DNA of 64,000 nt from Candidatus Woesebacteria bacterium GW2011_GWC1_42_9 (GCA_000995185.1 LCET01000002.1:220-64219); one strand, 5' to 3'. Shown: positions 39,324 to 59,209, counted from the stretch's first letter. Translations and numbers: made by a program. Notes: generated by a model not told the origin, from the letters alone.

Positions 39324-39529
39324 TTTAGCCCAATTCTCCTAAAAACACGGGTCAGATTAAGACAAGTTCAGCTCGAACGATGGTATGTTTTCCGAAGAAT
39401 TGATTGGATAACCGAGCTGGAATATCCTGAATTTACGAACAAGGAAGTGAATAGATTTCTCCAAATGAACTCTTAAATCGTTCGGCAGTTTGGGTCGAAA
39501 AAAAATCTTATTTAGCCTAAAATAGGACT

Positions 39530-40812: not shown

Positions 40813-40819
40813 AACGAAG

Positions 40820-41728
40820 CTAAGGCTGTCTTTTTACTAAAAACTGCTCTAATAGCTTTCTGTTTATAACCAGTGTGTTCATCATATCTTCCATAAGTGG
40901 AGCGGTGTCAGTTATTCCATTGGCTAAAAATCCCCCCTCCTTTTCTTTTCCTGACAGAAAACCAGAATGTAAAAAGGCTGATCTTAACTTACTATAAAGC
41001 CTCTTGACCATTTTTGTTGCCTGATCAAGATTTTTACCTGTTAGCAATTCCTTGATTAAATCAACGATTGCTTGCCTTTCACTTTTTGTTTGGTGATTTA
41101 CTCTTTTCTTACAAACTGAACAAAAAGGATGACCTTTACAAAAAACGGGGTTATTTGCAAGTTGGTTTATAGATGACAAAAATAAAGTCATGTAGAGAGT
41201 ATATTTCAGGTGAGGATTTGGTATTTCCATCAATTCTGACGCCCAGACAAAAGTGTTCAAAGCATTGTCAAACTTTTCAAAATCTTTCTTTGTTAATCCC
41301 CACATTAACTCCACACAACCTTTAACTCTAAAAATATGGTTATTCTCTGGAGCAGTTCCACTATAACTTTTCGAATCGTTGTGTTTGAGACTCCCAAAGT
41401 ATTTAAGAACATCTTTAATTTCTTTTGCTTTGTTTAATCGGACAGCACTGTATCGTGTGGGTAATCCAGTTTCTAAATAAATTAGGTTTAGCAATCGCTG
41501 AAGATTGGCAAAGGTATTCTGGGCGTTTAACTCCTTTGAAAGTTCCAAGTAAATATAAACAACTCCCAAACCACGGAGACTCGCATCGTTTTTACCAGCA
41601 AAAATTACAACTCTTTTCTGATCGGAAAGGGGCAAAGGCTTTAACTCGTAATAAGGATCGTCGTTATTATAAGTATTTACAGGCAATTTGAATAAATATC
41701 GCCATGACGCAGTCGTTTTTTTCATCAT
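40820..41728 (-). CDS. Hypothetical protein (302 aa) with C-x2-C / H-x-C cluster
   Basis: CKGHPFCSVCKKRVNH suggests a zinc-binding element. No family was recognised. Confidence 0.4.
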   Translation of the reverse strand: MMKKTTASWRYLFKLPVNTYNNDDPYYELKPLPLSDQKRVVIFAGKNDASLRGLGVVYIYLELSKELNAQNTFANLQRLLNLIYLETGLPTRYSAVRLNKAKEIKDVLKYFGSLKHNDSKSYSGTAPENNHIFRVKGCVELMWGLTKKDFEKFDNALNTFVWASELMEIPNPHLKYTLYMTLFLSSINQLANNPVFCKGHPFCSVCKKRVNHQTKSERQAIVDLIKELLTGKNLDQATKMVKRLYSKLRSAFLHSGFLSGKEKEGGFLANGITDTAPLMEDMMNTLVINRKLLEQFLVKRQP

Positions 41729-41776
41729 TTCAAGTATACCTTTTTTCTCTGGTTTTTTGTATAATTTAGTTTAGTT

Positions 41777-41968
41777 ATGCCGAAGAATAAAGACGAGTTA
41801 CCAAAACTCTTAACTATAAAGCAGGCATCAGAAATCCTAAATGTGCATGTAGAGACTTTGCGGAGGTGGGGCAAAAGCGGGAAATTGAAGGCTGTTAGGG
41901 TTAATAAGCGAGGAGACAGACGCTATGATCCCAAAGATATTGAAATGATACTGAAAAATAAAAAATAA
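41777..41968 (+). CDS. Small HTH DNA-binding protein (excisionase/MerR-like)
   Basis: LLTIKQASEILNVHVETLRRWGKSGKL is a typical excisionase-type HTH. It lies immediately upstream of the restriction gene. Confidence 0.6.
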   Translation: MPKNKDELPKLLTIKQASEILNVHVETLRRWGKSGKLKAVRVNKRGDRRYDPKDIEMILKNKK

Positions 41969-41970
41969 AC

Positions 41971-44556: not shown

Positions 44557-44558
44557 AT

Positions 44559-45413
44559 ATGATCACAAAACAATTTCTTGAAACATATCCACTGCTTAGA
44601 AAATACCCCATTACATTCGATAAACTAAGCCACAGTCAGTGGGGAACAAAAGGTGCTATTTGTAATCTTCCTAAACCAGCACTTAATTTATTCTGCAAAA
44701 AGTGCCAGAGCATGCAGACATTTAATATGGAAAATGACTTTGAACATTTTGCAGTCGACTCACCTGTAAGGCATTCTCCTGTAGGAAAAATCTTTGAAGT
44801 GAGATATCTGTGTGCTGGTTGCGGGCAATACCGACATACTTTTTATATCGAATTTGGTGTTGATAGAGCGCCAAAGGGAGATGCGAGAACATTTAGTGGC
44901 TGGATTCGCAAAATAGGTCAGTTGCCTCCGTGGGAAATTGATATTGATAAAAACATTGAAAAGGCATTGGGAGACGATAGTGTGCTTTACAAAAAAGGCT
45001 TAATCTGTGAGTCTCAAAGTTATGGAATAGGCTCATATGCTTATTTCAGGCGTATCACAGAAAACATTATCGACGAACTGTTAAATTCAATTTCTGATTT
45101 AATTGACGAGGGAGATAAAGAAAAATATGAACAAGCGCTGGAGAAAGTAAAAAAAACCAGAGTGACAGAAGAAAAAATTGAGTTAGTGCAAGACTTATTA
45201 CCATTATCACTACAACCCAATGGGCTTAATCCTTTGAAATCACTTCACTCTGCTTTAAGCGCTGGCATACACAATAAAACTGATGAAGAATGTTTAGAAT
45301 TAGCTGAGACAATAAAAGAAGTTTTAATCTACTTACTGGAAGAAATCAAAAATCGAAAAAATAGAGCAAAAGAATTTACAGAAAGAATGAAAAGATTACT
45401 TAAACAAAAATAA
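44559..45413 (+). CDS. Hypothetical Zn-ribbon protein encoded between the restriction and methyltransferase genes
   Basis: Four Cys (CNLPKP...CKKC ... CAGCGQ). C-terminal helical region. 3-nt gaps on both sides indicate co-translation with its neighbours. Confidence 0.45.
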   Translation: MITKQFLETYPLLRKYPITFDKLSHSQWGTKGAICNLPKPALNLFCKKCQSMQTFNMENDFEHFAVDSPVRHSPVGKIFEVRYLCAGCGQYRHTFYIEFGVDRAPKGDARTFSGWIRKIGQLPPWEIDIDKNIEKALGDDSVLYKKGLICESQSYGIGSYAYFRRITENIIDELLNSISDLIDEGDKEKYEQALEKVKKTRVTEEKIELVQDLLPLSLQPNGLNPLKSLHSALSAGIHNKTDEECLELAETIKEVLIYLLEEIKNRKNRAKEFTERMKRLLKQK

Positions 45414-45415
45414 AC

Positions 45416-47413
45416 ATGATAAATAAAAAAATAACCAAATCTCTCTCTGATGAGATCAAGATTAAAGCTAAGATAAGCAAGATAAAGATTGAAACACCAA
45501 AGGGTAGACCTCTGCTCCATTGGGTTAATAAACACCCGTTAGAATATGTCACAGGCTTCCCGACACAGCTAACAGAAGTCTTCGACCCTCAGAAGAAAGA
45601 CAAATTCCCAGAAACTCCTAAATACAACGAGCTTGAAAAGAACTGGCACAATCTCTTATTTCATGGTGACAACAAAGAAGTTTTAGCCACACTCCTCGAA
45701 CAAGGATTTAGAGGCAAGGTTGACCTTATTTATATCGATCCTCCGTTTGCCAGCAACAAGGACTACATGAGGAAAGTTGAGCTGCGGGGACTGAAAGATT
45801 TGGGCAGGATCGAGGAAGACAGCGAATCGATCATCCAGCAAACAATGTATGAAGATATTTGGAAAAGGGACGAATACTTCCAGTTCATGTATGAGAGGTT
45901 GATTTTACTGAAGGAATTGCTGGCAGAAACGGGCAGCATTTATGTTCACCTTGACTATCGAATGGTGCATTATATCAAGGCGTTCATGGACGAGATCTTC
46001 GGCGAAGACAATTTCAAAAACGAAATTACATGGAGAAGACAAATTCCAAGAGGTATGAAAGCACATGCCACCTTCCTGCCCTACAGCGCTGAATACATCC
46101 TGCTTTATACCAAAGGAGGGGGTGCAATATGGAATCAACCAATTAAGATAAACAAACTCTCGATAAAAGAGGCAGAGAAAAAATACATGAAAGATGAAAA
46201 AGGATTTTTCAGGACTTCAGACCCTGGAACTTTCTCCTTTGAGGGTCTTTTTGATCTTTATAAAAGGGGGAAATTATACGCACCCTACAATGGCAAGATT
46301 ATCGTGGACACAAAGAGTAAGAGAATTTATACCCAGAAAGGGAATCTGGGCATTAAGTATTACAGAAAAAGAGAAGGTAATTTTATTGTTGAAGAAACCC
46401 CAGTCGATAACATCTGGGAAGACATCCCAGGTTTGGGAGTAACACCGTCAGAGTGGTTAGGTTATCAGACTCAAAAGCCAGAGGCATTACTCGAACGAAT
46501 TATCAAAGCCTCTTCTGACTCAAATCATTTAGTTTTGGATTGTTTTATGGGGTCTGGAACAACATGTGCGGTGGCTCAAAAGTTAGGCAGGCGGTGGATT
46601 GGGGTTGATGTTAATAAAGGGGCAATTCAAGTTACCAGCAAGAGACTACAAAAAATCTCAAAAGACAAAAAAGAGGCAAAACACCCCACCTTTGCAGTTT
46701 ATAAAGTTAATAACTACAACCTGAGAATCTTAAAAACAGAGGCTAAGGAACTGGCTATCCAGCAATATGGAATTACTAAGGTCAAAACGGACACTTTCTT
46801 TGACGGTTTGCGGGATAGTGGTGAACTGGTCAAGGTTATAGATTTCAATCACCCCTTAACGCTACTTGACCTACAGCTAATCGTTGACGAGCTTAATAAA
46901 CGACCAGATGAAGACAGAGATGTTGTGGTTATCTCGCTGGGTCGAGAAACAAAGGTTGATGCTTGGATTGAGGAATGGAATAAAAAACAGCCCTATAAAG
47001 ACACCAGAAACAAGAAACGCATGCGTCAGTTTATTGTCTTCGACCTGAAAGACAAAAACTTTGTGAGTTACGAGCCATCAAAAGCAGATGTAGAAATTAA
47101 GCGGGTAGGCAAAGGCAAAGTAAAGATTAAAATTGTATCCTTTATCTCCCCCACGATCATTAAGCGCCTGGAGCTTGAACCAGGACTCTTGCAGAAGAAA
47201 ATCCCAGATTTCAGGTCGATGATCGATGTGGTGCTGGTTGACACGGATTACGACGGTGAAGTATTTAAGATTGGTTTCTCCGATGTCCCAGAAAAACAGA
47301 ACGATTTAGTTAAGGGTGAATACGAGCTTGAAATAAGCGAAAAGCCAACCAAAGTGGCAGTCAAAGTCATTGACATGTTGGGAGAAGAAGTCATGGTTAC
47401 CAAAGAGGTGTAA
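45416..47413 (+). CDS. DNA methyltransferase, beta-class amino-MTase (type III Mod-like)
   Basis: Motif IV (DLIYIDPPF) precedes motif I (LDCFMGSGTT), which is the beta-class order. Length is 665 aa. Confidence 0.8.
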   Translation: MINKKITKSLSDEIKIKAKISKIKIETPKGRPLLHWVNKHPLEYVTGFPTQLTEVFDPQKKDKFPETPKYNELEKNWHNLLFHGDNKEVLATLLEQGFRGKVDLIYIDPPFASNKDYMRKVELRGLKDLGRIEEDSESIIQQTMYEDIWKRDEYFQFMYERLILLKELLAETGSIYVHLDYRMVHYIKAFMDEIFGEDNFKNEITWRRQIPRGMKAHATFLPYSAEYILLYTKGGGAIWNQPIKINKLSIKEAEKKYMKDEKGFFRTSDPGTFSFEGLFDLYKRGKLYAPYNGKIIVDTKSKRIYTQKGNLGIKYYRKREGNFIVEETPVDNIWEDIPGLGVTPSEWLGYQTQKPEALLERIIKASSDSNHLVLDCFMGSGTTCAVAQKLGRRWIGVDVNKGAIQVTSKRLQKISKDKKEAKHPTFAVYKVNNYNLRILKTEAKELAIQQYGITKVKTDTFFDGLRDSGELVKVIDFNHPLTLLDLQLIVDELNKRPDEDRDVVVISLGRETKVDAWIEEWNKKQPYKDTRNKKRMRQFIVFDLKDKNFVSYEPSKADVEIKRVGKGKVKIKIVSFISPTIIKRLELEPGLLQKKIPDFRSMIDVVLVDTDYDGEVFKIGFSDVPEKQNDLVKGEYELEISEKPTKVAVKVIDMLGEEVMVTKEV

Positions 47414-47481
47414 TCAGATACCCCTCTCAAAGATTGCTGATTTAACTGCCCTTAATTGGGCAGTTTTTGTAAAAAATAAGT

Positions 47482-48087
47482 ATGATCGATATAAAAAACT
47501 TTAATCCTGGAAAAGACCTTGAAGAATTTCTGAAGCCCTATGGTGAGAAAGCGCTATCAGATTTTAGAGATAAAGTTACTGAAGACTTAAAAAGAATTTC
47601 TGAGAGACATAAAAGCCTGCTAAAAGATTCTGAAAACTTCAGACTACAGTTAATTACCATTGCTGGTGGGACAATTTCCATCTTTGTCGCCCTACAAGGA
47701 AACTTTGATATTTCGCTGCTGACAAAACTGGGTTTTGCTTGTTTGGGCATGTCTTTGATATTGGGCGTAGCCTCACTGTTTTTTGGTCTTGAATCAAAGC
47801 GGTTTGAAATTCAATTAGAGGAAAGCAGTAATTTATTCCAGCAGAAACAGGCGCTTGATTTTCTTGAAAAGTTTTATCGTCTCGACATCAGCCCAGAAAA
47901 AGAAATACTTTCATATTCTGAGAGCTTTAAGAAGGAATATGACACCGATCTCAAAAAGAGGCAGAAACAGATAAACAAAATTCTGAATTTTATACACCTG
48001 GATGCTCAAAAGGTTGAAAACGGACAGTTGATTTTATTTATGATAGGGATAATCCTTATCGTTTTAGGATTGTTCCTGCGTGTCTAA
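47482..48087 (+). CDS. Hypothetical membrane protein (3 TM)
   Basis: ORF with a helical N-terminal region and three TM helices. Confidence 0.4.
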   Translation: MIDIKNFNPGKDLEEFLKPYGEKALSDFRDKVTEDLKRISERHKSLLKDSENFRLQLITIAGGTISIFVALQGNFDISLLTKLGFACLGMSLILGVASLFFGLESKRFEIQLEESSNLFQQKQALDFLEKFYRLDISPEKEILSYSESFKKEYDTDLKKRQKQINKILNFIHLDAQKVENGQLILFMIGIILIVLGLFLRV

Positions 48088-48114
48088 TTAAGCAACCAAA
48101 AGGCAATTTTGTAA

Positions 48115-48837
48115 ATGACTATGAAAAACATAAATGATCTTCTAACTGAACTGGCTAAGGGCGCAACCCACATCATCAGCAAGCCAGAAACAATAAAGGA
48201 ACTCCAGAAACAAGGGGTAAAGTTTGATAAACCCCAAAGATTGACTCCTGAACAAGCTGTCGAAAGCATATTTTCTCAAAGAAAAGCCGTTGCCTTAGCC
48301 AATATAACCAAATTCTCTCCTCCGCCAGATATTGCTATCCCTACAATTGGCTTTCTTTATGATGAAATTCGTGAGTGTATTCTATTCGGGCTTTACGGGG
48401 CTGCCATCTCACTGAGCGCCGTCTTAGTGGAGTTTTCTCTTAAACATGCTATCGTCAGGAAGAAGTTTGGGAACACCTACAAAGAAAACGAGTGGGATAG
48501 GATTGAAGGTATGGAACTAAATCCGACCATCAATGAGGCTAAGCAATTAGGTATTATTGATAAAGAAACAGAAAAAAGGTTAATCAGCTTCAAAGACTCA
48601 ATTAGAAATCCTTATTTGCACTACAATATAAAGAAAATCACGAAAAATGTGGCTGCAAGAAAGGTGAAGCGGTTCGATATTAAAACAAGGGAAGTAAAAG
48701 AGGTTAATCTAAATGCCAAAGATAATCCTGTTGTTTGGGGCTTTGCTAAAAGATTTGTTGACAGGGAAATGGTTTTTCAAGTTTTTGGATTTGCAGACAA
48801 CTTGATCAGATACCTTTTTTCAAAAAACATTAAGTAA
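48115..48837 (+). CDS. Hypothetical protein (240 aa)
   Basis: ORF only. Confidence 0.4.
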   Translation: MTMKNINDLLTELAKGATHIISKPETIKELQKQGVKFDKPQRLTPEQAVESIFSQRKAVALANITKFSPPPDIAIPTIGFLYDEIRECILFGLYGAAISLSAVLVEFSLKHAIVRKKFGNTYKENEWDRIEGMELNPTINEAKQLGIIDKETEKRLISFKDSIRNPYLHYNIKKITKNVAARKVKRFDIKTREVKEVNLNAKDNPVVWGFAKRFVDREMVFQVFGFADNLIRYLFSKNIK

Positions 48838-48845
48838 TTTTTCAT

Positions 48846-49484
48846 TTAGTTCATCTCTACCATGAACATTAAGTCATCGTAAAAAACAAACACCCAAACG
48901 CTCATAGGTTCTTGCCCCTTCGCAAACATCCGCCACATTCTAAAAACTCCGTCTCCCTTTTCAACATAAAAGAATTTCTGATATAACATATCAACGATTT
49001 GTTGATTAGGAATGATGTTTGCCACCCTGAACTTGGCTTTGGAGTAGTCAATCTCTGGATTAAAGTAACGAGTAAAACCCTTAGTAAGCCTAACAAGATA
49101 TTTTTTGGCTTTTTTAATAGGATAAGTCATACCAGTTGCTGATGTTATTTGATCGTTGATAAGGGCTTTAATAGGCACAAGACTGTTTCTGGTAGCCGTT
49201 TTCAGTTTTGGACTTCTTTTGAAGGAAGACCCCATCACCTTATTATCCCAAACCCACTGCCCAGCCTTAGATCGATTAAGGGTTGATGACACAAAAACTC
49301 TGAATGACTCGTCAATAAGGGTATATTCTTCGTTGCACTTCCTGCAACATAATACGGTTGCCAAATTAGCTGGTTTGGGGGAAGGAAAAAGATTTTTTGG
49401 AGGAATGTGATCTCTGGTGAGATTTTTTGTTGAACCGCAAAGATAACAGCTATTTACCATGTTTATATTATGGGTATCTAACAC
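48846..49484 (-). CDS. HNH endonuclease-domain protein
   Basis: CYLCGSTKNLTRDHIPPKN ... CCRKCN is an HNH motif with flanking Cys pairs. Confidence 0.6.
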   Translation of the reverse strand: MLDTHNINMVNSCYLCGSTKNLTRDHIPPKNLFPSPKPANLATVLCCRKCNEEYTLIDESFRVFVSSTLNRSKAGQWVWDNKVMGSSFKRSPKLKTATRNSLVPIKALINDQITSATGMTYPIKKAKKYLVRLTKGFTRYFNPEIDYSKAKFRVANIIPNQQIVDMLYQKFFYVEKGDGVFRMWRMFAKGQEPMSVWVFVFYDDLMFMVEMN

Positions 49485-51018
49485 TCAGACACGGTATAAT
49501 TATATCAGTATGCACTGGTTTGATCTTAACTTAGGACAATACGACTTAGCCGAGAGATGGGTTGGTCTGGATTATAAGAAGCTTTTCTTAGACCCCCTCT
49601 TGGCGGACATTACTTACGCCCATGAAGCGAGCCATGGTGTGATGGCGCTACAGTCAGACTTTGGGCAGGCAACAAATGTTATTTTCAAACTGCAAGACAG
49701 CTTTACCAAAATACAATCAGACGAAGTTGATTTGATATTAAAGTCTTTGTTTCAATCCCAAGACAAAGTTCAAGAAGGATTTGCTACTTTTATGGAGATT
49801 TCTCGACTGAGAGCATTAACTACAAAACAAAACGCTCTGGCATGGGCGCAACAAAATCTTCCTCCTGCATATAAGCAATATCTTGCACCGCTTCTTTTTG
49901 GATTCGAATTGTCAAAGGGTTATAGGGAGTTTTTTACGGCAAAAGTAAGCTGGTTGGCAATGGAAACAGGAATAAGAAAAGCCCTGTATGAGCAAGACTT
50001 ACTATCAGACACATCCAAGTTGGCGACTTATTTGTCAGATGAAGACAATAACCCTAATGTCAGATTACTTAAAATCTGCGACACATTAAGAATTAAATCG
50101 TGGCTGGTTACTAAGGATAATCCAACCTTAGCAAAAGAATGCGGGGTAAAGTATCATGAACCTGCCACCAAAGCTGAAGTTGCTGAGTTTTTGAGCTATA
50201 CGACAGGATTTACTGACAACCCCCAACACTTTTCTCCAGAACAGATCGGGGATACTCCACAAGGAGCAGATGCTTTTATTCAAGTGTCAAAAAACATGAT
50301 CGTTGCCAATTTGAATCTGAAATTAGCGGAGACGGCAAAGGTGATGTTTAATCTTAATTACTTCTTAAACATAGCCTCCAACATCGAGATTATATTTATT
50401 AACCCCCACGATAAGGACTGGAAACACCGTGATTTGATCAAGTTGGTAAGTGGCGAAGAACCAGAGGTTGCTATTGGTGGATTTACAACAGACGACCAGA
50501 AATACCTTACAGTCACTTCCAGAGAAAAGGCATCAGAAGTAATTAACAACGATTTACGCCATGCCACGCTATTTGTTAAATGGGGAGGATATAATCTCTC
50601 CAAAAATCAGCTAATATGGAGCGAGACAGTTCGCCCACCTGACCTTGTGGTTTATAACACAATCGATCAGTTGCAAGACAGAATAAAGCAAATTCTCGCT
50701 ACTGTCCCAGATATAAAATTCCAACACCTACATTTAGGAGCGAGCGAAGGACACCCTTTTCAATCTTTGCTGTTAAAAATTGGTGACTTATCGCCTCTTC
50801 ATATCGTGAATTGTTTTGGGAATAAGGGTATTTCAGAGACAATTGGGTTGATGAGTGGCAAAACGAGAGTAATTACCCATGACGGGCTGAAAACTCAAAA
50901 ACAACACATCAATAACCTTATGTGTTTGTGGATGGGGATGCCGTGGAAAGTAGATTGGGTAGAAACGATGATAAATGGGAAGAAGATTGTTTTTAGAGAG
51001 GAGCGTAACAGCGCTTGA
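49459..51018 (+). CDS. Hypothetical protein (519 aa) with HExxH motif
   Basis: ITYAHEASHGV may define a metallopeptidase-like site. No family was recognised. Confidence 0.4.
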   Translation: MFILWVSNTQTRYNYISMHWFDLNLGQYDLAERWVGLDYKKLFLDPLLADITYAHEASHGVMALQSDFGQATNVIFKLQDSFTKIQSDEVDLILKSLFQSQDKVQEGFATFMEISRLRALTTKQNALAWAQQNLPPAYKQYLAPLLFGFELSKGYREFFTAKVSWLAMETGIRKALYEQDLLSDTSKLATYLSDEDNNPNVRLLKICDTLRIKSWLVTKDNPTLAKECGVKYHEPATKAEVAEFLSYTTGFTDNPQHFSPEQIGDTPQGADAFIQVSKNMIVANLNLKLAETAKVMFNLNYFLNIASNIEIIFINPHDKDWKHRDLIKLVSGEEPEVAIGGFTTDDQKYLTVTSREKASEVINNDLRHATLFVKWGGYNLSKNQLIWSETVRPPDLVVYNTIDQLQDRIKQILATVPDIKFQHLHLGASEGHPFQSLLLKIGDLSPLHIVNCFGNKGISETIGLMSGKTRVITHDGLKTQKQHINNLMCLWMGMPWKVDWVETMINGKKIVFREERNSA

Positions 51019-51318
51019 TACCCTGTGTGGGGCTTTTGTGGCTGGGGTGGCAAGTTTCACCTCTGTTTGACTTCACCGACCTTGTTGGGCGTTTGTTGCA
51101 GAATCGCTTGATATTACTTGCCGTTTCATTTATCTTCTGAGTTGGTAGGCTTCTGAGGGTAGAAATTCGGATGCTACCGCTCGTAGATGGAGGAACGTCC
51201 GACCTCCCAAAGCCTACCGTCTATTGACGCCAGAAAACCCCTCCTTACCGCTGGCGGGCAAGAAATTGTTGGATGGGAGGACTGAGAGGGTCTCCCCATA
51301 GATCGCCATGACTCCAGC

Positions 51319-52050
51319 TTAATTTTTCGCCAGATCGTAAGTGTCGTTATCATAAACGATTATCTGCCCACCATTGGTGATGGTAACACTTACAAGTTCC
51401 TTTGTCTTGCCGTCTTCATCATCTGTCTTCCATTTAAGGAAGAAGTTGCCAGGTTTCGTTCCCTCAAACTCGTAGGTCATCTTGGTGATGTCAACCCCAA
51501 AGATGCCTTTGTGATCGGTTAGGAACTTCTCGGCTACGGGGCGGATCGCTTCTGGTGTGGTATAGCGTCCTGAGTAGTCATACTCTGGCATGGGGTCAAA
51601 CCAGCGTGTGCCATCCTCCTTCGTTCCCCATCTGCGTTCGGCTTCGTGAATCTCAATGATGTAGTTGGTCTTGGGATCGATGCTAAAAGCAAATCTGGCA
51701 GCTTCATAATACTCAGTATTACCCCTTCCGCAGGTAAATTCTACAGGGACATCTGGCATACCCAGAAACTCCTTAACATTGGCTACTGCTTCTTCTCGTT
51801 CCGCAGCTGGTCTGGATTTTAAGAGGCAGTATTGCTGCTTCGCCTCTTTGTATTCCTGAGAGTCTTTGTCTTTAACCTCCATCATGACCGCTTCAAGCCT
51901 GGCAATTTCCTTATCTCTCTCCTTAGTTTGTAAAGTCTGAACAACCTTTGATTGACTGACCAAGCGAGGGGCTAAAACCACTGCAAGAATGGCGATGACG
52001 GCAAGGATAAGGATAACGGGCAAAAGACGAGATTTATTTTTATGCTTCAT
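51319..52050 (-). CDS. Hypothetical secreted/membrane-anchored protein
   Basis: N-terminal TM/signal (LLPVILILAVIAILAVVLA). Confidence 0.45.
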   Translation of the reverse strand: MKHKNKSRLLPVILILAVIAILAVVLAPRLVSQSKVVQTLQTKERDKEIARLEAVMMEVKDKDSQEYKEAKQQYCLLKSRPAAEREEAVANVKEFLGMPDVPVEFTCGRGNTEYYEAARFAFSIDPKTNYIIEIHEAERRWGTKEDGTRWFDPMPEYDYSGRYTTPEAIRPVAEKFLTDHKGIFGVDITKMTYEFEGTKPGNFFLKWKTDDEDGKTKELVSVTITNGGQIIVYDNDTYDLAKN

Positions 52051-52067
52051 TTTTATTTTTCACCTCC

Positions 52068-53081
52068 TTACTTCAGATATTTTTCAATGTTGGCTAAATG
52101 TTCTCTGTAGGTCTTGGCGCAGTGAATTTGCCTGTTTGAGTCGTGAAGATAATAAAGGCAATCAGTCTCGGTGGAGTTAAGGACGGCGTCAATGGCATCC
52201 AGTCCTGGATTGGAGATGGGAAAGGGAGGCAAACCAGTGTATTTATAAGTATTATATTTTGAGTCGATCTCTTTGTCGGCTGGTGTAATTGGTTTCCAGA
52301 ATCCAGTAGTAAGATTATCCCTGTCGTCTCTGGCATACTGGACGGTAGCATCAACTTCCAACTTCATATCTTTCAAAAGACGATTCCAAAGGATTCCAGC
52401 AATAAGGGGCATATCTTCTTTACCTGCTGCCTCTCGCTGGACGATGGAGGCAATTTTTAATGCCGTTGTCCATTTAACATTTTGTTTTAGGAATTTAGTC
52501 ATGTAGGGGGCAAACTCCTCGTCAAAGCGCCTTCTGAGACGATTAGCGACATCCAGACCACTCTCATTAACAGGGATGAGGTAAGTATCGGGGAAATAAA
52601 CTCCTTCCAAGTGGTCATAGTCCATAGCCGTGTAGGTGTAATTCCAGTCATGAAGCTGTTTTTCATCCCACCCCAGAATCTTTGCCAGGCGTTCTCCAGT
52701 CTCTTCCTTACGGAGTCCTTCAGGGATTACTACCCACTTCATATAAGGGGTAGAGGTAAGGGTCTTAGCCACCTCCCAGGCATTCATATTTTTATTGAGA
52801 TTGTATGCACCAGGCTCGATAGATTTGTTCCTCCGAGACAAGGTAAAACTAAACCCCAAAGGACTTCTGATATACCCCTGTTCGGATAGATCTTCAATGA
52901 CCTGCTTTTGGGATATCTGAAGACCAACAGTAAAGATACCTGCCTCCGTCTCACTAAGCCTCCTTTGAGGAGCGCCAAAGAAAAGTTGGAAGGCAATAAC
53001 GGAAGAAACAACCAAAATAAGCAGGCTTACCCCTGCCCAAAACCACCATTTTTTGATTACTTTACTCATTTTTATTGTCAT
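52068..53081 (-). CDS. mltG: Endolytic murein transglycosylase MltG/YceG family
   Basis: N-terminal TM and YceG-like motifs (IPEGLRKEE, ASIVQREAAGKED, GILWNRL). Confidence 0.7.
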   Translation of the reverse strand: MTIKMSKVIKKWWFWAGVSLLILVVSSVIAFQLFFGAPQRRLSETEAGIFTVGLQISQKQVIEDLSEQGYIRSPLGFSFTLSRRNKSIEPGAYNLNKNMNAWEVAKTLTSTPYMKWVVIPEGLRKEETGERLAKILGWDEKQLHDWNYTYTAMDYDHLEGVYFPDTYLIPVNESGLDVANRLRRRFDEEFAPYMTKFLKQNVKWTTALKIASIVQREAAGKEDMPLIAGILWNRLLKDMKLEVDATVQYARDDRDNLTTGFWKPITPADKEIDSKYNTYKYTGLPPFPISNPGLDAIDAVLNSTETDCLYYLHDSNRQIHCAKTYREHLANIEKYLK

Positions 53082-53400
53082 ATTTAGGTGTAGGTGGCGA
53101 TGTTAGCTTCCTTTGGGGAGTAAAGTCAAATCCAACAAAAAAAGCTCCCAGCCAGCGATAATCCTTGCGGACTACCTGCAGCCCTTTCGAGCTACAACCT
53201 TCGCAGATGCTCTGACTGAGAGCTTTCTTCTGCGAAGGTTTTCTTAGCCATGCCCCAAAGGGTTTAGGCTTTATGTTTCTATTTTATCAATTTATCAATT
53301 TTCCTGCCATACCCCTTAGTTTTGGCTTAAAAGACTCGTCTTTGGTAAAATTATCAGTAAAGTTACTTTAAGGGGTGCGGTTAAATTACCCGATATTACA

Positions 53401-54333
53401 ATGAAAGTTAAAAAGAAAATTACTCCTGTTAAACGAATAGAAAAAGTCTATGAACCTGAAGTAATCCCCGACAGGACGGATGAGCTAATAAAAAAAGCAG
53501 AAGAAGCAAATATCAGACTTCATGAACAAGCACTTGCGGAAAGAAGACACAAAGAAGATCTCAAACAAAGAAGAATCCTGGTAGCCAAAGAGGATAAATT
53601 CGCTCACGCCATAAATCTCATTATCGAACGGGTAGAATACCAAAACTCCCCCAGTATCTGTATTGATTTGAACGAGCTTAATTTTGAAAACACCATTGGT
53701 GATGTAAAAACTTTAATGTGCTGGTTTGAAGAATTGAAAAACTTTGGTGGATTTAAGCATTACTCCAAACAAAACTACACTGGGGGTGCGAGATTTTATC
53801 TTACAGGACTCAATGTCGGGAAACTTAAACAATACAAAAATCAGGTAGGTTTATTACCGCACGGAAAAGGAATACTTAAATTACCTCCAGAGGTTAAATG
53901 GGAAGACATTACGATTCGGTTTCTCAATGGAGATGAGGTGTTAATAAAATGTGGCAATCTAAGTCGCCACACAAATTATGAAGATATGGGTTTCTTAGAC
54001 AAAAGAACTAAGTCAGCCAAAACACCTAATAAGCCCAATAAGCAATGGAGTTTTCTCAAAGGGTTATCTGAGACAAAAGGAGAGATTTCGTGGAGAAGTT
54101 CAACCGCCACACCACAAGGGAAAAAACAAAAACAGCTTTTATCAGAAAGGCTCAAAAAATACTTTGGCATTGATAACGACCCGTTTTACTCCTATAAAAA
54201 TGAGAAGGCTTATAAAATCAGGCTCACTTTAATACCCGAACAGAAAGATAATGAGAGCGACAAAGGGTCGGATTCCGATTTAGAAGAATTTTACAAGGAA
54301 CAAACACCAGAAGTTTACGACAAACATACTTAG
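53401..54333 (+). CDS. Hypothetical protein (310 aa), Lys-rich
   Basis: First ORF of the element. No family was recognised. Confidence 0.4.
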   Translation: MKVKKKITPVKRIEKVYEPEVIPDRTDELIKKAEEANIRLHEQALAERRHKEDLKQRRILVAKEDKFAHAINLIIERVEYQNSPSICIDLNELNFENTIGDVKTLMCWFEELKNFGGFKHYSKQNYTGGARFYLTGLNVGKLKQYKNQVGLLPHGKGILKLPPEVKWEDITIRFLNGDEVLIKCGNLSRHTNYEDMGFLDKRTKSAKTPNKPNKQWSFLKGLSETKGEISWRSSTATPQGKKQKQLLSERLKKYFGIDNDPFYSYKNEKAYKIRLTLIPEQKDNESDKGSDSDLEEFYKEQTPEVYDKHT

Positions 54334-54474
54334 TTAACGAATTTTACCAATAAGCACTACTTGTTAAATAGCCCGCAATAGCGGGCATTTTTAATCCTCT
54401 GCATTTTTCACCGTGAATTTTCCCCATTTACTTAATAGAAGGGCTTTTTTAACGAAGCTATTAGCCAAAATTAT

Positions 54475-54759
54475 ATGGACAATAAATTAAACAACCATCA
54501 ACCAGGAAATTCTTCCTCTTTTAGCGAGAAACACCTATCCACTTATGACTTAGGGTTGAGCGCTGCCTTAGTGACTGAAGGCTTCCAGCTTGTTTCATTG
54601 GTGCGAGATAACCCAAAAAAAGTTCAGTTTATCTTCCTCCGAGAAAAAAACATCGAGAAATGTGTCGACGACTACTTTGCTGGGCGTTTGCTTGTGAACG
54701 CTCGTTCTCTTTTTGACAACACAAAAATGTTAAAAAACCGAATTTATTCGAGCGTATGA
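54475..54759 (+). CDS. DUF5659-domain protein
   Basis: YDLGLSAALVTEGFQLVSLVRDNPKKVQFIF matches the DUF5659 pattern common in CPR phages and mobile elements. Confidence 0.55.
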   Translation: MDNKLNNHQPGNSSSFSEKHLSTYDLGLSAALVTEGFQLVSLVRDNPKKVQFIFLREKNIEKCVDDYFAGRLLVNARSLFDNTKMLKNRIYSSV

Positions 54760-54763
54760 GCCT

Positions 54764-54946
54764 ATGATCAGCCAAAAACTTTTACAGGAATTAAAAGAAA
54801 TCTTGGAACATGACTATAAAGTCCGTCTTTCAATGCAGGAAGTTGCGGAGATTGGGGTAACTTTATTGCGATACTTCGAAACACTTATTGAGATTAAATC
54901 AAAAACCAATCTTGAAATGAAAGGAGGTGGTCTCAATGAGCGTTAA
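54764..54946 (+). CDS. Small hypothetical protein (60 aa)
   Basis: ORF only. Phage-like context. Confidence 0.3.
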   Translation: MISQKLLQELKEILEHDYKVRLSMQEVAEIGVTLLRYFETLIEIKSKTNLEMKGGGLNER

Positions 54947-55088
54947 AAAGGATTATGTCAAAGAATTAGAGGTAGCAAGGGAGAAGATGGAAGCAGCTAC
55001 TAAGAATTACTATGTCGCTCTCGAAAAGAAACTGATGAGCGAAGCTATAAAGCGAGGAATCGCTGAGGCAAAAGCGAAAAAAAGATAA
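54936..55088 (+). CDS. Small hypothetical protein (50 aa)
   Basis: aaggaggtgg RBS 5 nt upstream of the ATG. It is a helical, charged peptide and is absent from the supplied ORF track because it is under 60 aa. Confidence 0.3.
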   Translation: MSVKKDYVKELEVAREKMEAATKNYYVALEKKLMSEAIKRGIAEAKAKKR

Positions 55089-55093
55089 AAACT

Positions 55094-55825
55094 ATGACTG
55101 CTAAAAGTCCAAATTACAATAAGAGGTTGCTTGAAGCCCTGAGTGCTAAACCAGTGGTTTTTAATCCTGTGTTAGCAAAACTAACAGGATCGGTTAAGGC
55201 AGGGTTATTACTGTCGCAGCTTTTATATTGGTGGGGAAAAGGACAAGACCCAGAATCAATCTATAAAACAATTAAGGAAATCAAAGATGAGACCGCTCTA
55301 TCAAGAAGCGAACAGGATGGGGCGATTAAAAAGATAAAGAAACTGGATTTAATGGAAGTTGAACTCCGAGGAATCCCGCCCAGAAGACACTTCAAGCTCA
55401 ATTTGCAGAAAATCAGCAATTTAATTTGCAAGAGTTCAACAAACTTATTTGAAGAAAACCAACAATATAATTCAGATAATACTTCAGAGAATTCTTCAGA
55501 TACTAATGCTAACGCATTGCAGGTAGCCCCTGCGATTGAGTATGGCAATAAAGACATTAACTTTTTAATCTCCTACTTAAAGGAGAAACTCTCCCTACCC
55601 CTCTTGGATGGGACTGTGCAGCAAAATCGGCGTTACGCCCATTCCTTGATTAGGAAGTTTGGCAGTGTCGACAAGGTAAAACTCCTGATTGATGCTACTG
55701 CTCAGGACGATTTCTGGGCGACTAAGATTACTTCGTTTCAGCAGCTTTTTTATAAGGCAGTGCAGATTATCAGTAAAACCAGAAAGAGAGGAGGGGGTGT
55801 TTATGACGCCACAAATGTCGGATAA
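55094..55825 (+). CDS. Hypothetical protein with N-terminal winged-helix (replication-initiator-like?)
   Basis: AGLLLSQLLYWWGK...IKEIKDETALSRSEQDGAIKKIKKLDL resembles the wH of phage replication proteins. Identification is weak. Confidence 0.35.
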   Translation: MTAKSPNYNKRLLEALSAKPVVFNPVLAKLTGSVKAGLLLSQLLYWWGKGQDPESIYKTIKEIKDETALSRSEQDGAIKKIKKLDLMEVELRGIPPRRHFKLNLQKISNLICKSSTNLFEENQQYNSDNTSENSSDTNANALQVAPAIEYGNKDINFLISYLKEKLSLPLLDGTVQQNRRYAHSLIRKFGSVDKVKLLIDATAQDDFWATKITSFQQLFYKAVQIISKTRKRGGGVYDATNVG

Positions 55826-56249
55826 AAATTATATCGTTGCTTACGGTTATGATCAAACATTTGATTTAACCGAAAATGAAGCCGAGGCACTAATTACTGC
55901 CAGAGAAAAAGGCTTATCAGCAATAAGACTTAATAGAGGCAGCCTCTCAACATCTTATTCGTGGGTAATGCCTAAATGGGAGGTTGAAAGTGAGAGACTG
56001 AATGAAGAAGAACTAAAACTTGCAGAGATGGTTGGTAAGTGGCTTGCACGACCCGTTCACGATTTAGATTTTACTCCAGAGTCGGCAATGCGCTACTCCA
56101 AAAAACTTGTAAAAAGAATTGGTTACGGACAAGTGAAAAAGCTCTGGGATGTTTATGCCAATGGCGCATACCCCTCAGCCAAGAAATTCCTGATGGAAGC
56201 AAAGGAAATCTCGTCAATTCAAGCACCAGCATTACCAGATGAGACATAA
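55803..56249 (+). CDS. Hypothetical protein (148 aa)
   Basis: ggaggggg RBS. It starts with MTPQMSDKNY. The longer ORF-track N-terminus overlaps the previous gene. Confidence 0.4.
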   Translation: MTPQMSDKNYIVAYGYDQTFDLTENEAEALITAREKGLSAIRLNRGSLSTSYSWVMPKWEVESERLNEEELKLAEMVGKWLARPVHDLDFTPESAMRYSKKLVKRIGYGQVKKLWDVYANGAYPSAKKFLMEAKEISSIQAPALPDET

Positions 56250-56484
56250 ATCTATGAGCAAAAATCAACTAAAACTAACAAAACTGGAAAGAAAGCAAAC
56301 CTTATCTCTTTTTTTGAGATTGGGAATTTATCGCTCTTGGAGTCCAAGAAGTTATGCAGTTTTTGAAAGACATCTTAATAAAGCTGACGACGAATCGTTG
56401 CCTATGGGAGAACGAGTTAGGGCAGCTAATAAGATTGATCAGATGTTTTACAGGAGGATGAAAAAACATGAACAAAATAAGTGA
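56239..56484 (+). CDS. Small hypothetical protein (81 aa)
   Basis: ORF only. Confidence 0.3.
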   Translation: MRHKSMSKNQLKLTKLERKQTLSLFLRLGIYRSWSPRSYAVFERHLNKADDESLPMGERVRAANKIDQMFYRRMKKHEQNK

Positions 56485-57073
56485 ACAACCAGAAAAACTA
56501 ACAACCTCAAAGATGCCCAGAGAGACAGAAAGCCAATACACTGCTTTCTTGCTCTATTGCGAGGTTGGCAGCGTTTCCAAATTGATCCAAGCATGGCAGC
56601 AAATATGTCGGAATCCTGTAGGAGAATTGTCGGTGATTTTTGGCAATAAACTTGGGGATTTACCCTCAGAAAGGACAATTGAGCGTTGGTCGGTTAAATA
56701 CCAGTGGGTCAAGCGAGCAGATATGAAGCTAAAAGAAGACTTAGAAGGCTTAAAAAAGAAGTCAACCCAAATCAGACAAAGGCGAGCTTACACAATCACG
56801 GAGGTTTTTTGGAGCAAACTACAGGCACTAAAAAAGCAAATACAGACAGGTGAACCAGCCACTGTTCCAGAAGTTAAGGCACTATGGGAAATGATGAGGA
56901 TTGAATGGGGAGAAAGCATCAGTAAACAAGAAGTGGTTCAGGGAATTAACGAAGACGAACAAAGACCGCTGACCGAAGAAGAAATGATAGCCAGCAAATT
57001 TCTTACTGAAGCTGAAATGAAATATAACGACTACATGTTGAAGTTAGAAAGCAAAAAAGAGAAAAAACAATAA
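56468..57073 (+). CDS. Hypothetical protein (201 aa)
   Basis: ORF only. Helical and charged. Confidence 0.4.
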   Translation: MNKISEQPEKLTTSKMPRETESQYTAFLLYCEVGSVSKLIQAWQQICRNPVGELSVIFGNKLGDLPSERTIERWSVKYQWVKRADMKLKEDLEGLKKKSTQIRQRRAYTITEVFWSKLQALKKQIQTGEPATVPEVKALWEMMRIEWGESISKQEVVQGINEDEQRPLTEEEMIASKFLTEAEMKYNDYMLKLESKKEKKQ

Positions 57074-57161
57074 CTATGCCAAATCAAACACTCTACACCA
57101 TCTCACTTAGCTTGATATTACTTGAAGTTTCGTTTATGTGTTGTGTTGGACAAAAATTACT

Positions 57162-58775
57162 ATGAAAGCCGTCATATTCTGCCGAGTCAGCTCAAAAGAA
57201 CAGGAAGAAACAGGCTACTCCCTGCCCGCCCAGGAGAAGTTCCTGCGGGATTATGGCGAGAAACAAGGCTTAGAAGTAGCCAAAGTCTTCGCTATCTCCG
57301 AGTCGGCAGCAGGCACAATCCAAAGAAAGACCTTTAACCAGATGGTCGAATATGTCCGCAAGAAAAAGATTTGCGCCATTATCGTCGAGACGACGGATAG
57401 GTTAACCAGGAACTTCTCCGATATGCCAATTATCGACACTTGGCTGAAGGAAGACGAAGAACACCAAGTCCACCTGGCAAAAGAAACCTGTGTCCTCCAC
57501 AACTCCTCCCGCTCCCACGAATGGTTCATCTGGCGGGTCAAGGTGGCAACGGCAGAATACTATGTCCGTTTACTCTCCGAGAATGTAAAAAAAGGACAAA
57601 AAGAAAAACTGGCTCAGGGCTGGATTCCAACCAAGCCACCGATGGGATATAAGACAGTTGGAGAAACTGGACATAAAATCCACATTGTTGACGAAGGAGT
57701 AGCTCCTTTGATCAGGAAGATGTTTGAGTATTACGCTACAGGTGATTTTTCAATCAAATGGCTGTCCATGACGATGCGTAGAGAAGGCTTGCGCTCCCCG
57801 CAGGGCAATAAGGTAGTCAACAGCCGTCTTCACTCCCTACTGCGTGACCCCTTTTACATTGGTAAAATAAGGTGGAACGGAGAGATACACGAAGGCAAAC
57901 ACGAGCCTTTGATAAGTAAAGAGCTATTTGATAAAGTCCAAGCGATGCTTACCAGAAAAACCACTCCCAAACACAGGAAACATTCCTACCTTTTCCAGGG
58001 ACTGATCAGATGTGCGGGCTGTAACGGCTTAATTACCTGGGAAAAGCAAAGAACCCACCACTACGGGCATTGTAACCACTACCACGACTGCAAACAAACT
58101 ACCTGGGTCAAAGAGCCAGAAGTTGAGGAACAGCTCCTATCTGGCTTTGACAACTTGAAACTTAAAAACCAAAGGATCGTCGAGTGGTTAAAGAAGGCAC
58201 TCAAAGAAAGCCACCAAGACGAGATCGAATACCATAACAGCACTGTCGGTGAGTTACAAACCCGCTACGAGGCAATCCAGAAGCGGATGGACAAGTTATA
58301 CGACGACAAACTGGACGAAAAGATCAACCAGGAATTTTACAGCAGGAAATTCAAACAATACTCGGAAGAAAAAGACGAACTGACCGAAACCATTAAAAGG
58401 CACTCTACCGCCAGCACAGGCTACCTGAACCTCGGTATTAACCTCTACGAACTCTCCCAGAGAGCCAAAGAGATCTACCTCAAAGCCAAAGCAAAGGATA
58501 TGCTGGACGAGCAAAAGAACCTTATTAGGCTGGTATTTGCCAGGTTGATCCTGGATGAGGGCAAACTTAGCTGGGAATACTCAAAAGCCTTCAAAATCCT
58601 CTCGCAGGCAGTAGAAGAAACCAATTGTTCGAAAGTGGAAAAAATAGACGATTTTGAAAACAAAACTTTCGAACATCGCAAAAAGAGCGATGTTACGGGA
58701 CAAAGAGGCGATTTGTTGCCTCTGCGTCCCATCTGGCTCCCCCGGGAGGATTCGAACCTCCAACCTGCCGATTAA
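57162..58775 (+). CDS. Large serine recombinase (phage-type serine integrase)
   Basis: Resolvase catalytic domain (MKAVIFCRVSSKEQEETGYSLPAQ ... RLTRN). Recombinase domain, a C4 zinc-ribbon (CAGCNG...C..HYHDC) and a coiled coil. The last ~13 codons are encoded by tRNA-Asn sequence. Confidence 0.85.
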   Translation: MKAVIFCRVSSKEQEETGYSLPAQEKFLRDYGEKQGLEVAKVFAISESAAGTIQRKTFNQMVEYVRKKKICAIIVETTDRLTRNFSDMPIIDTWLKEDEEHQVHLAKETCVLHNSSRSHEWFIWRVKVATAEYYVRLLSENVKKGQKEKLAQGWIPTKPPMGYKTVGETGHKIHIVDEGVAPLIRKMFEYYATGDFSIKWLSMTMRREGLRSPQGNKVVNSRLHSLLRDPFYIGKIRWNGEIHEGKHEPLISKELFDKVQAMLTRKTTPKHRKHSYLFQGLIRCAGCNGLITWEKQRTHHYGHCNHYHDCKQTTWVKEPEVEEQLLSGFDNLKLKNQRIVEWLKKALKESHQDEIEYHNSTVGELQTRYEAIQKRMDKLYDDKLDEKINQEFYSRKFKQYSEEKDELTETIKRHSTASTGYLNLGINLYELSQRAKEIYLKAKAKDMLDEQKNLIRLVFARLILDEGKLSWEYSKAFKILSQAVEETNCSKVEKIDDFENKTFEHRKKSDVTGQRGDLLPLRPIWLPREDSNLQPAD

Positions 58776-58808
58776 CAGTCGGACGCTCTACCATTGAGCT
58801 ACAGGGGA
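58737..58808 (-). tRNA. tRNA-Asn (GTT)
   Basis: On the minus strand it reads TCCCCTGTAGCTCAATGGTAGAGCGTCCGACTGTTAATCGGCAGGTTGGAGGTTCGAATCCTCCCGGGGGAG. It has a 7-bp acceptor stem, a GGAGG/CCTCC T-stem, the anticodon GTT, and no encoded CCA. Confidence 0.85.
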
Positions 58809-58846: not shown

Positions 58847-59209
58847 CTAATTTTTCTTTGCGTTCTTTACTATTGTCGTTAAGATTCGTATCAATTCTTT
58901 GTTCTCTTCAAGTAGACTTTTAAGCCTACCCTTCGGCACCAATCCAACTCCAGCTATTAACTTCAACCAATACTCTGTCTCTCTAGATTCCTTAAGAGCG
59001 ATTGTTAAACCTCTTATAAATTCCTTTTTTGAACTTGAATTCTGTGCCTCTTCAACATTTGCACCGACGCTTGTCCCTGATCTAACAATCTGGCTAGCAA
59101 TTGCCCTGCTAGATATTGATCTGGGTAACTTATCAACTAGTTTTATAATTCTCACGCTGAACAGGAAAGTTCTCGCTCGAATATCGAAAACCTTCTTATC
59201 CACGCTCAA
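58847..59209 (-). CDS. Four-helix-bundle protein (TIGR02436 family)
   Basis: FSVRIIKLVDKLP...SQIVRSGTSVGANVEEAQ...SKKEF matches the 23S-IVS-protein-like family. Confidence 0.7.
   Translation of the reverse strand: MSVDKKVFDIRARTFLFSVRIIKLVDKLPRSISSRAIASQIVRSGTSVGANVEEAQNSSSKKEFIRGLTIALKESRETEYWLKLIAGVGLVPKGRLKSLLEENKELIRILTTIVKNAKKN

Follow-up and report, generated by a model that had tools for sequence, protein, structure and literature searches.

A probable 19.4-kb integrative element of a Woesebacteria genome with the attachment site inside its serine integrase gene

The SSV-type ('suicidal') integrases of archaeal viruses and plasmids carry their attachment site inside the integrase open reading frame (ORF), and integration at a tRNA gene splits the integrase gene in two (PMC7253208, PMC8371274). 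In mycobacteriophage BPs, attP, the attachment site, lies inside the gene for the repressor, and the prophage-encoded form of the repressor is 33 residues shorter (PMC4557955). The Vibrio phage-inducible chromosomal island (PICI)-like element (PLE) uses a large serine recombinase (LSR; PMC9638900). Here we analyze a 64,000-nt stretch of DNA from Candidatus Woesebacteria bacterium GW2011_GWC1_42_9 (GCA_000995185.1, LCET01000002.1:220-64219), an uncultivated groundwater bacterium; in this stretch, referred to as the window, the ORF of an LSR runs into a tRNA-Asn gene. Window coordinates are used throughout. As judged from sequence comparisons, this overlap probably marks attR, the right end of an integrative element of 19,365 bp, which is moved by the LSR, is inserted in the 3' end of tRNA-Asn and carries attP inside its own integrase gene. 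Serine integrases, to our knowledge, do not usually target tRNA genes. In a literature search of incomplete coverage, we found no report of a serine integrase with attP inside its ORF, nor of such elements in bacteria of the candidate phyla radiation (CPR), the Patescibacteria. The aspects that appear to be new are the in-gene site yielding two isoforms, the tRNA-end target that is mimicked by the P' arm of attP, and the presence of the LOOT RNA aboard the element.

The window integrase and its relatives resemble the LSRs of A118 (LI), Bxb1, PhiC31 and SPbeta (SprA) in combining a resolvase catalytic domain, a recombinase domain and a zinc ribbon with a coiled-coil insert. Their predicted attP is likewise short (~50 bp) and quasi-palindromic around a central dinucleotide, with an outer motif that would lie 5 bp further inward in attB, as in LI. 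They differ from these LSRs in that attP lies in the coding sequence of the integrase itself and the protein differs between the integrated and excised states, in that they target the 3' end of a tRNA gene, and in that the left attB arm has no conserved motif. As in the SSV type, the gene in the window is partitioned, here into a body at 57162-58737 and a tail at 39372-39476. However, the SSV-type integrases are archaeal tyrosine recombinases that are destroyed by the split, whereas the window encodes a bacterial serine recombinase that loses only its last 34 codons and keeps the catalytic and DNA-binding domains in one ORF. The window integrase thus resembles the SSV type in one respect but, with its serine-recombinase fold, is not a member of it. 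The integration-dependent immunity of BPs is very similar in its logic and in the size of the swapped piece (34 aa here), and its attP is also in the 3' end of a regulatory gene; but BPs splits its repressor by means of a tyrosine integrase and the lost piece bears an ssrA-like degradation tag, whereas the window element splits its integrase and shows no obvious tag. Phage satellites (PICI, PLE) are a possible comparison, as the element contains an integrase, a putative replication initiator, a small-terminase-like gene and defence cargo, with no capsid or tail genes detected. In contrast to them, no helper phage, packaging signal or capsid-remodelling gene was identified for the window element, which could equally be an integrative plasmid.

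The integrase reading frame and tRNA-Asn

The LSR probably starts at ATG 57162, because its homologues begin with MKxVIFCRVSS. Pfam searches identified a Resolvase domain (PF00239, E 7e-19) at residues 11-161, the N-terminal catalytic part, and a Recombinase domain (PF07508, E 2.6e-15), together with a zinc-ribbon match (Zn_ribbon_recom, PF13408, E 4e-4) whose 21.1 bits fall under the 25.3-bit cutoff. Arg8 and the serine nucleophile Ser10 are invariant across 57 sequences, and the zinc-ribbon cysteines C284, C287, C304 and C310 are invariant as well. The coiled coil and the fold were examined on the homologue P0081, ~60% identical, in place of the window protein. Its AlphaFold model shows beta strands at 282-304 and helices at 337-441, the coiled-coil insert, and the top Foldseek matches of the model are the SPbeta, Bxb1, PhiC31 and LI integrase chains with E values of 1e-18 to 3e-11. 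Sequence identity to solved integrases is 12-25%. A first-pass annotation of this DNA had proposed an integrative element with a large serine recombinase, and this part of its reading is correct.

The ORF enters the minus-strand tRNA-Asn by 39 nt and terminates at TAA 58773-58775 in the anticodon loop. Trp525 (TGG, 58734-58736) is the complement of the encoded CCA of the tRNA, and residues 526-537, LPREDSNLQPAD, are encoded by the tRNA, as the first-pass annotation had stated for the last residues; their codons correspond, in reverse complement, to its acceptor stem, T-arm, variable loop and anticodon stem. A protein search returned >1800 homologues, of which those with a named source come from Roizman-, Woese- and Levybacteria and other Patescibacteria. 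Their C-termini have a common ...RPIWL and then diverge, with many going on as x-D-S-N-x-x-P, and the GAT TCG AAC found there is the T-loop in reverse complement. For a comparison of loci, one genome per GTDB species was sampled; 328 stretches encode a relative, 80 were kept, and 77 loci were scorable. In 41 of the 77 loci, the ORF runs into a minus-strand tRNA-Asn called by ARAGORN in exactly the register seen in the window, and in six, all of one clade, it is fused to tRNA-Gln. About 20 further ORFs run into a tRNA-like T-arm with no ARAGORN call, some of them finishing at a contig edge. Adding these to the 47 ARAGORN-confirmed fusions gives about 67 of 77 Patescibacteria relatives, and because the same-register fusion recurs at this frequency, the overlap is not a matter of chance. 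The element family is widespread in Patescibacteria.

Whether the C-terminus tracks the tRNA had been chosen beforehand as a test that could refute the proposed element. The residues past Trp-Leu do follow the tRNA, with a stop after 3 aa in 18 loci, after 12 in 16, and a range of 3-19, an outcome that favors the proposed element. Because these residues track the tRNA and end at varied stops, the integrated tail is unconstrained.

Several loci depart from the common pattern. The tRNA beside the integrase of L026, the only uncalled locus examined, is split by a group I intron (RF00028, 76 bits; 11622-11829, minus strand), which explains why ARAGORN misses it. Long tails like that of L026 occur in L007, L021 and L070 and in proteins P0019, P0078 and P0118, and a group I intron may be the origin of the recurring '...PYK.P.VTKR.GLS...' read-through tails. 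The tRNA-Gln clade (L044-L048 and L051), whose integrases are ~55% identical to that of the window, carries GCTG at attR in place of the GCTC of the tRNA-Asn loci, and is a case of natural retargeting within the family. In L031, L034 and L081 and in P0004, P0048 and P0107, RPIWL continues into a long non-tRNA tail of a second, unrelated class (e.g. PNPSFNINDSI.RLIDIVEEIGVAGRL). These tails may represent junctions with another element type at the same tRNA; in L081, a tRNA-Asn is found 5.4 kb further downstream. CPR-type integrase loci, among them L005, L008, L034, L043, L049 and L052, were also found in metagenome-assembled genomes labelled Pseudomonadales, Gammaproteobacteria, Bathyarchaeia, Nanoarchaeia or Methanoperedens, labels that more probably stem from mis-binning or automatic mislabelling than from genuine hosts.

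Attachment sites and extent of the element

A minority of the homologues have no tRNA-like C-terminus and end in a conserved peptide of ~34 aa, W..F(R)T..W...E.(Y/C)PE......LL, which we refer to as the native tail. It is intact in five loci. Using the intact tail of L015 as a tblastn query, we obtained a match in the window at 39372-39464 (E 1.9e-12), in a frame that is open from the att core to the stop. The same search found the tail as an open, same-strand orphan in 11 tRNA-integrated loci, 6.7-11 kb upstream of the integrase gene (int), and the window has it likewise at 19.4 kb. The subtype of the window tail, LE[KR]W..F, is that of its closest intact relatives, L015 and L039.

Mapping attL and attR from the two element ends, a step that the first-pass annotation had recommended, placed the core GCTC at both (Table 1). 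The window attL reads ...aagttcaGCTCgaacgatgg... and the attR ...cccatctgGCTCccccggg..., and GCTC is common to attL and attR in 13 of 13 other attL/attR pairs examined (11 loci). The distance between the predicted central dinucleotides is 19,365 bp, with a span of about 39373-58738. When the left part of attR is put together with the right part of attL, a canonical LSR attP is obtained for the window, GTCCCATC TGGC[TC]GAAC GATGGTAT, in short form GTCCCATC-TGGC[TC]GAAC-GATGG. The attP consensus of the family is GTCCCATC-N10-GATGGGAC with the core TGGC[TC]GNNC and an 8-bp inverted repeat centred on the core TC, in which GTCCCATC of the P arm is the inverted repeat of GATGGGAC of the P' arm. The heptamer TTCGAAC occupies +17 to +23 in P' versus +12 to +18, in the T-loop, in the tRNA arm B', which places it 5 bp inward in attB. 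In LI integrase, the motif of the zinc-ribbon domain occupies half-site bp 16-24 in attP and 11-19 in attB (Rutherford et al., PMC3783163). We take the match in the 5-bp offset as strong internal support, because this agreement was unexpected when the junctions were placed.

The P' arm is formed by the first tail codons, ERW(D/Y)(D/V)F(R)..., and attP lies wholly in integrase coding sequence. Because the site is inside the ORF, the overlap with tRNA-Asn is best understood as the result of a split gene and not as a mere run-on. The rejoined integrase would have 559 aa versus 537 aa in the integrated form. The predicted circle junction, with the crossover dinucleotide set apart, is ...CCCATCTGGC TC GAACGATGG... 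(longer form GCGTCCCATCTGGC-TC-GAACGATGGTATGTTTTCC), and the predicted empty-site junction is ...AAGTTCAGC TC CCCCGGG... (longer form GATTAAGACAAGTTCAGC-TC-CCCCGGGAGGATTCGAACCTCCAACCTGCCGATT). The 'CA' of the encoded CCA (58734-58735) is element DNA, namely part of the Trp codon of int, and the unoccupied junction of the metagenomic contig L095, described below, has no encoded CCA. A search of the window for a repeat of the 3' half of the tRNA, as an att duplication, found none longer than 13 nt. No long duplication is expected for a serine integrase, and the earlier expectation that long att repeats are missing holds, with GCTC as the only shared core.

The course of integration can be read from these sites. 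A serine-recombinase crossover fell at the Leu codon after the conserved Trp, and recombination of attP with the 3' end of tRNA-Asn (GCTC, tRNA positions 71-74) cut the integrase gene. The body of the ORF was fused to the tRNA and now ends at the first stop in the reverse-complemented tRNA, in the window after 12 residues, and the native 34 codons were left as an orphan at the far end of the element. The tRNA body was kept intact, with the integrase borrowing a stop codon from it. Excision would rebuild the 559-aa integrase, and we infer that the element still excises.

The extent of the element was first assessed differently. The first-pass annotation had favored a compact element of ~5.7 kb, with its left end in the 53.1-53.4 kb spacer at an 11-bp-stem hairpin (accttcgcaga/tctgcgaaggt) and with mltG and the genes to its left as host core, a reading that can draw on the shift of GC content and strand bias near 53 kb, on the small phage-like genes beginning at 53401 and on a 4-nt match, TGGC, at 53094-53097. 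The hairpin does exist, but what it forms is the third helix (helix 3) of a strongly covarying LOOT RNA and not an element end. The spacer is internal, containing LOOT and divergent promoter-like sites, and has neither the P'-arm motif nor tail-coding sequence, both of which are found at 39372; moreover, similarity to relatives extends left across mltG and the gene of a 243-aa protein. The compact element is thus highly improbable. Rather than being a host core gene, mltG lies inside the element and adjoins LOOT in related elements, and it was the fallback of the annotation, a larger element including the 39-51 kb defence island, that the orphan tail and att core at 39371-39476 upheld. The TGGC at 53094-53097, where similarity to L001 seemed to begin, was also considered as the left end by itself and was rejected, as the left gene of L001 is MltG-like and LOOT, mltG and the 243-aa gene are backbone.

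A 19.4-kb segment could also be a composite, in which a small core from LOOT to int sits beside an island of greater age, or beside a tandem partner in decay (39.4-51 kb), that has lost its own integrase, and the orphan tail was left by a previous occupant. The family does include tandem or nested arrangements (L015, L033, L036), and the GC content of the cargo region is patchy. However, no second integrase fragment or att remnant was found within 39.4-58.7 kb, and the tail subtype in the window matches that of the closest intact relatives. The restriction (Res) and modification (Mod) genes of the cargo also keep their position with respect to the backbone in L016, L018 and L026, where the Res and Mod homologues are ~80% identical and the order of Res/Mod, the 243-aa gene, LOOT, DUF5659, the gene of a 60-aa protein, the small-terminase-like (TerS-like) gene, int and tRNA-Asn is preserved. 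Because these three loci keep Res/Mod and the backbone in the same order, the 19 kb behaves as one unit, and we consider a composite improbable.

Empty sites and circular forms were also sought. The predicted attB, AGACAAGTTCA-GCTC-CCCCGGGAGGATTCGAAC, has a single exact match in the Joint Genome Institute (JGI) metagenomes, at the start of contig Ga0209542_10089712 (L095). In positions 1-88 of this contig, 15 nt identical to the left flank of the window abut tRNA-Asn exactly at GCTC, with no integrase at the junction, to the left of which the contig extends for only these 15 nt. Exact look-ups of the flanking proteins found the LexA-like protein (38706-39323) on 21 contigs and the 23S-rRNA-IVP protein (58847-59209) on 10, mostly from groundwater. 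Among relatives of the DUF6580 protein of the right flank, the nearest is 96% identical and lies on a 1-kb contig, and the others are at most 63% identical; the loci of two distant relatives, L102 and L104, have no tRNA-Asn beside the gene.

Several observations weigh against our interpretation. The comparison with related genomes that the annotation had called for, in search of an empty tRNA-Asn site, yielded solely occupied sites: all 21 and all 10 contigs with the exact flanking proteins are occupied, and no isogenic empty site was found. Searches of IMG/VR with two junction patterns did not find the attP circle junction, in a database from which the integrase family is nearly absent. The tRNA-Asn of L095 is just 87% identical to that of the window, its right flank is unrelated, and its left flank comprises only 15 nt, where the contig begins. 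The B (left) half-sites have no conserved motif, which is unusual for the attB of a serine integrase, and the att core may also be given a GC-palindromic reading. Finally, the native tail is modelled in P0081 only as a small helical module after a disordered linker. Because its context is non-isogenic, L095 shows that the predicted junction exists in nature but is no evidence of an empty site in this genome. Possibly, a further island at tRNA-Asn ends in the DNA left of attL, or the tip of the L095 contig may be chimeric.

The full occupancy of both sets of contigs and the missing circle junction would also fit an element of the same anatomy that is fixed and inactive in this lineage, the integrated integrase being a remnant and the tail swap being devoid of regulatory meaning. 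We regard this as rather unlikely, since neither the integrase ORF nor the orphan tail is disrupted and, in 13 integrated elements, the orphan tails have open frames and show purifying selection. In addition, many different genomes are occupied at the same site, which requires recent mobility of at least some members.

The exchanged C-terminal tail

All 13 orphan fragments stay open to the stop and are of about equal length. In tail codons 10-31, which lie beyond any plausible att site, pN/pS (the ratio of nonsynonymous to synonymous differences) is 0.17-0.45 with nearly saturated synonymous sites, orphan-orphan comparisons included; for the orphan fragment of the window, the ratio is 0.19-0.45 against other tails. 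The first ~8 tail codons are possibly conserved as DNA only, because they form the P' arm. Going by these substitution patterns, the tail is a selected peptide module. In the AlphaFold model of the intact-tail homologue P0081, which has an overall mean predicted local distance difference test score (pLDDT) of 83.6, a disordered linker at 489-497 is followed by four short helices at 498-537 with pLDDT values of 71-79. A Pfam search with the tail peptides alone matched no family. The tails end in LLQA, LLQMNS, LLQI or LLSAY, with no obvious ssrA-like tag. The possibility that the GWDDFRT tails are decayed tRNA was rejected, as they have no T-arm fold and are conserved at the protein level. As for the arrangement of the fragments, L015 has an intact-tail integrase and also an orphan tail 10.4 kb upstream (1093-1179 and 11576-11671), and two orphan tails precede one integrase in L033 (719 and 3877) and in L036 (995 and 3055), an arrangement that points to elements in tandem or nested arrays at a single site.

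Our best guess is that the tail swap matters, with two state-specific isoforms that would bias the reaction toward integration or excision, or would differ in stability; we put forward this regulatory role tentatively. A more specific proposal, likewise doubtful at this stage, is that the serine integrase has, in the C-terminal swap, a built-in switch of directionality or commitment and that LOOT, transcribed divergently from the int operon, is part of the switch. In such a switch, the 559-aa enzyme of the circle, with its helical tail, would permit or favor attP x attB recombination, and the integrated, tail-less enzyme, with 3-19 arbitrary tRNA-encoded residues, would have a different activity, e.g. 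on attL x attR, or a different stability. If this is true, each DNA state makes the isoform suited to leaving that state, and a separate directionality factor would be needed less or not at all. The isoform pair is a testable proposal for the control of directionality or stability.

The placement of a site inside the integrase gene, thought to be typical of archaeal tyrosine integrases, has, by these results, also evolved in bacterial serine integrases, here in a non-destructive form that yields two isoforms. For a very large and previously uncharacterized clade of serine integrases, natural attP and attB are defined to the nucleotide on sequence grounds, and all members target the universally conserved acceptor/T-arm of tRNA-Asn or tRNA-Gln. 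Serine integrases serve as tools in genome engineering, where a family with a tRNA-end attB is of practical interest.

LOOT RNA, cargo and backbone genes

LOOT (RF03000) has been described solely as a metagenome-based RNA without an assigned function (PMC7779021). The copy in the window, as the described RNA, is a full-length match to the model with a multi-stem, tetraloop-rich structure; what the element family adds to the description is a genomic home, between divergent promoter-like sites in LSR elements. A covariance model built from seven copies found about 20 strong copies in 81 related loci, or in roughly a quarter of the elements, always on the strand opposite to int and 1.7-4 kb upstream of it. 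Besides the window, these loci are L001, L006, L007, L016, L018, L022, L023, L026, L027, L034, L035, L040, L044, L046, L047, L048, L051, L064 and L082. In an alignment fitted to the model, a procedure that favors the structure, pairing is seen in 95% of cells and compensatory change in 31 of 36 pairs, and none of 500 shuffles reaches the observed value. Apart from the site before mltG (Table 1), a minus-strand promoter-like site ends at 53281, just upstream of the 5' end of LOOT, and a divergent plus-strand site is located at 53322-53351, all three being consensus matches only. The conserved block beside LOOT, searched as 53113-53133, had no match in IMG/VR. Homologues of mltG adjoin LOOT in L006 (74% identity) and L048 (62%), and L001 has a diverged MltG-like gene in the same place. 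LOOT thereby gains a host, the Microgenomates-group CPR bacteria, and a context, mobile elements, as a first handle on its function.

The remaining genes of the element comprise the cargo, with type III-like restriction-modification genes, and a rightward module that leads to int (Table 1). The TerS assignment within this module rests on a single PHROG match. Searches with Pfam, PADLOC and PHROG found no capsid or tail families among the element proteins. With a replication initiator and a TerS-like gene but no capsid genes, the element may live like a plasmid or a phage satellite once it is excised. The DUF5659 protein, which had already been named in the first-pass annotation and is matched by PF18903, and the 60-aa protein are conserved beside int and are candidate accessory proteins. 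The element family represents a major carrier of defence genes, and also of cell-wall genes, in CPR bacteria, a group in which mobile elements are poorly known.

Table 1. Features of the element and its attachment sites, in window coordinates
Feature	Coordinates	Strand	Evidence or remark
attL core GCTC; predicted central crossover dinucleotide TC at 39373-39374	39371-39374	+	same 4 nt at attR
Orphan 3' fragment of the integrase gene, LERWYVFRRIDWITELEYPEFTNKEVNRFLQMNS then stop	39372-39476	+	tblastn with the intact L015 tail
Predicted P' half-site, GAAC GATGGTAT GTTTTCCGAAG	39375-39400	+	consensus of 17 P' arms, motif GATGGGAC.GATTTTCGAAC
Three genes of 197, 230 and 302 aa	39530-41728		302-aa gene on -; no significant Pfam or PADLOC family
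Type III-like restriction subunit (Res), ResIII helicase and TnsA-like nuclease end, 861 aa	41971-44556	+	PF04851; PADLOC REase_III, weak score
284-aa ORF between the Res and Mod genes	44559-45413	+	ORF listing
N6/N4 DNA methyltransferase, type III Mod-like, 665 aa	45416-47413	+	PF01555 E 1.6e-46; PADLOC MTase_II E 1.6e-63, MTase_III E 1.5e-61
Further cargo: 201 aa, 240 aa, HNH endonuclease, 519 aa	47482-51018		HNH: PF14279 HNH_5 E 4e-7; other three without family
HNH endonuclease	48846-49484	-	PF14279
243-aa membrane-anchored protein, backbone gene	51319-52050	-	tblastn synteny, 18 related loci
MltG/YceG-like lytic transglycosylase, within the element	52068-53081	-	PF02618
Highly conserved block downstream of LOOT, with promoter-like site TTGACT-18-TAACAT before mltG	53098-53150	-	L001 alignment; promoter scan
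LOOT RNA, RF03000	53157-53270	-	cmscan 76.3 bits, E 1.4e-13, gathering score 46.4; model positions 1-121 of 121
First part of the rightward module: 310-aa protein, DUF5659, 60-aa and 53-aa proteins	53401-55088	+	
DUF5659 protein	54475-54759	+	PF18903; in 39 loci just upstream of int
60-aa protein	54764-54946	+	in at least 50 loci just upstream of int
Replication initiation protein, phage O-like/DnaD-like	55094-55825	+	phrog_9773 E 4e-27; phrog_6493 E 4.5e-13
Two small genes, 147 aa and 81 aa	55806-56484	+	
Small-terminase-like protein, 201 aa	56468-57073	+	phrog_6299 E 2.9e-11; in 15 loci, immediately upstream of int
Large serine recombinase, integrated isoform, 537 aa	57162-58775	+	Pfam domains; >1800 homologues
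Predicted P half-site within the integrase ORF, codons LLPLRPIW	58711-58737	+	consensus of 69 P arms
tRNA-Asn(GTT), source of attB and of the B' half-site	58734-58808	-	ARAGORN, with encoded CCA; Rfam tRNA 58737-58808, 71.6 bits
attR core GCTC, tRNA positions 74-71; predicted central dinucleotide TC at 58738-58739	58736-58739	+	

A second defence-type cluster is located to the left of attL, outside the element. It consists of a nucleotidyltransferase with SMODS and AGS_C domains, a CBASS-like cyclase of 518 aa as listed, and an overlapping 181-aa partner (36663-38613, minus strand), and is followed by the gene of the LexA-like protein of the left flank, an S24 peptidase.

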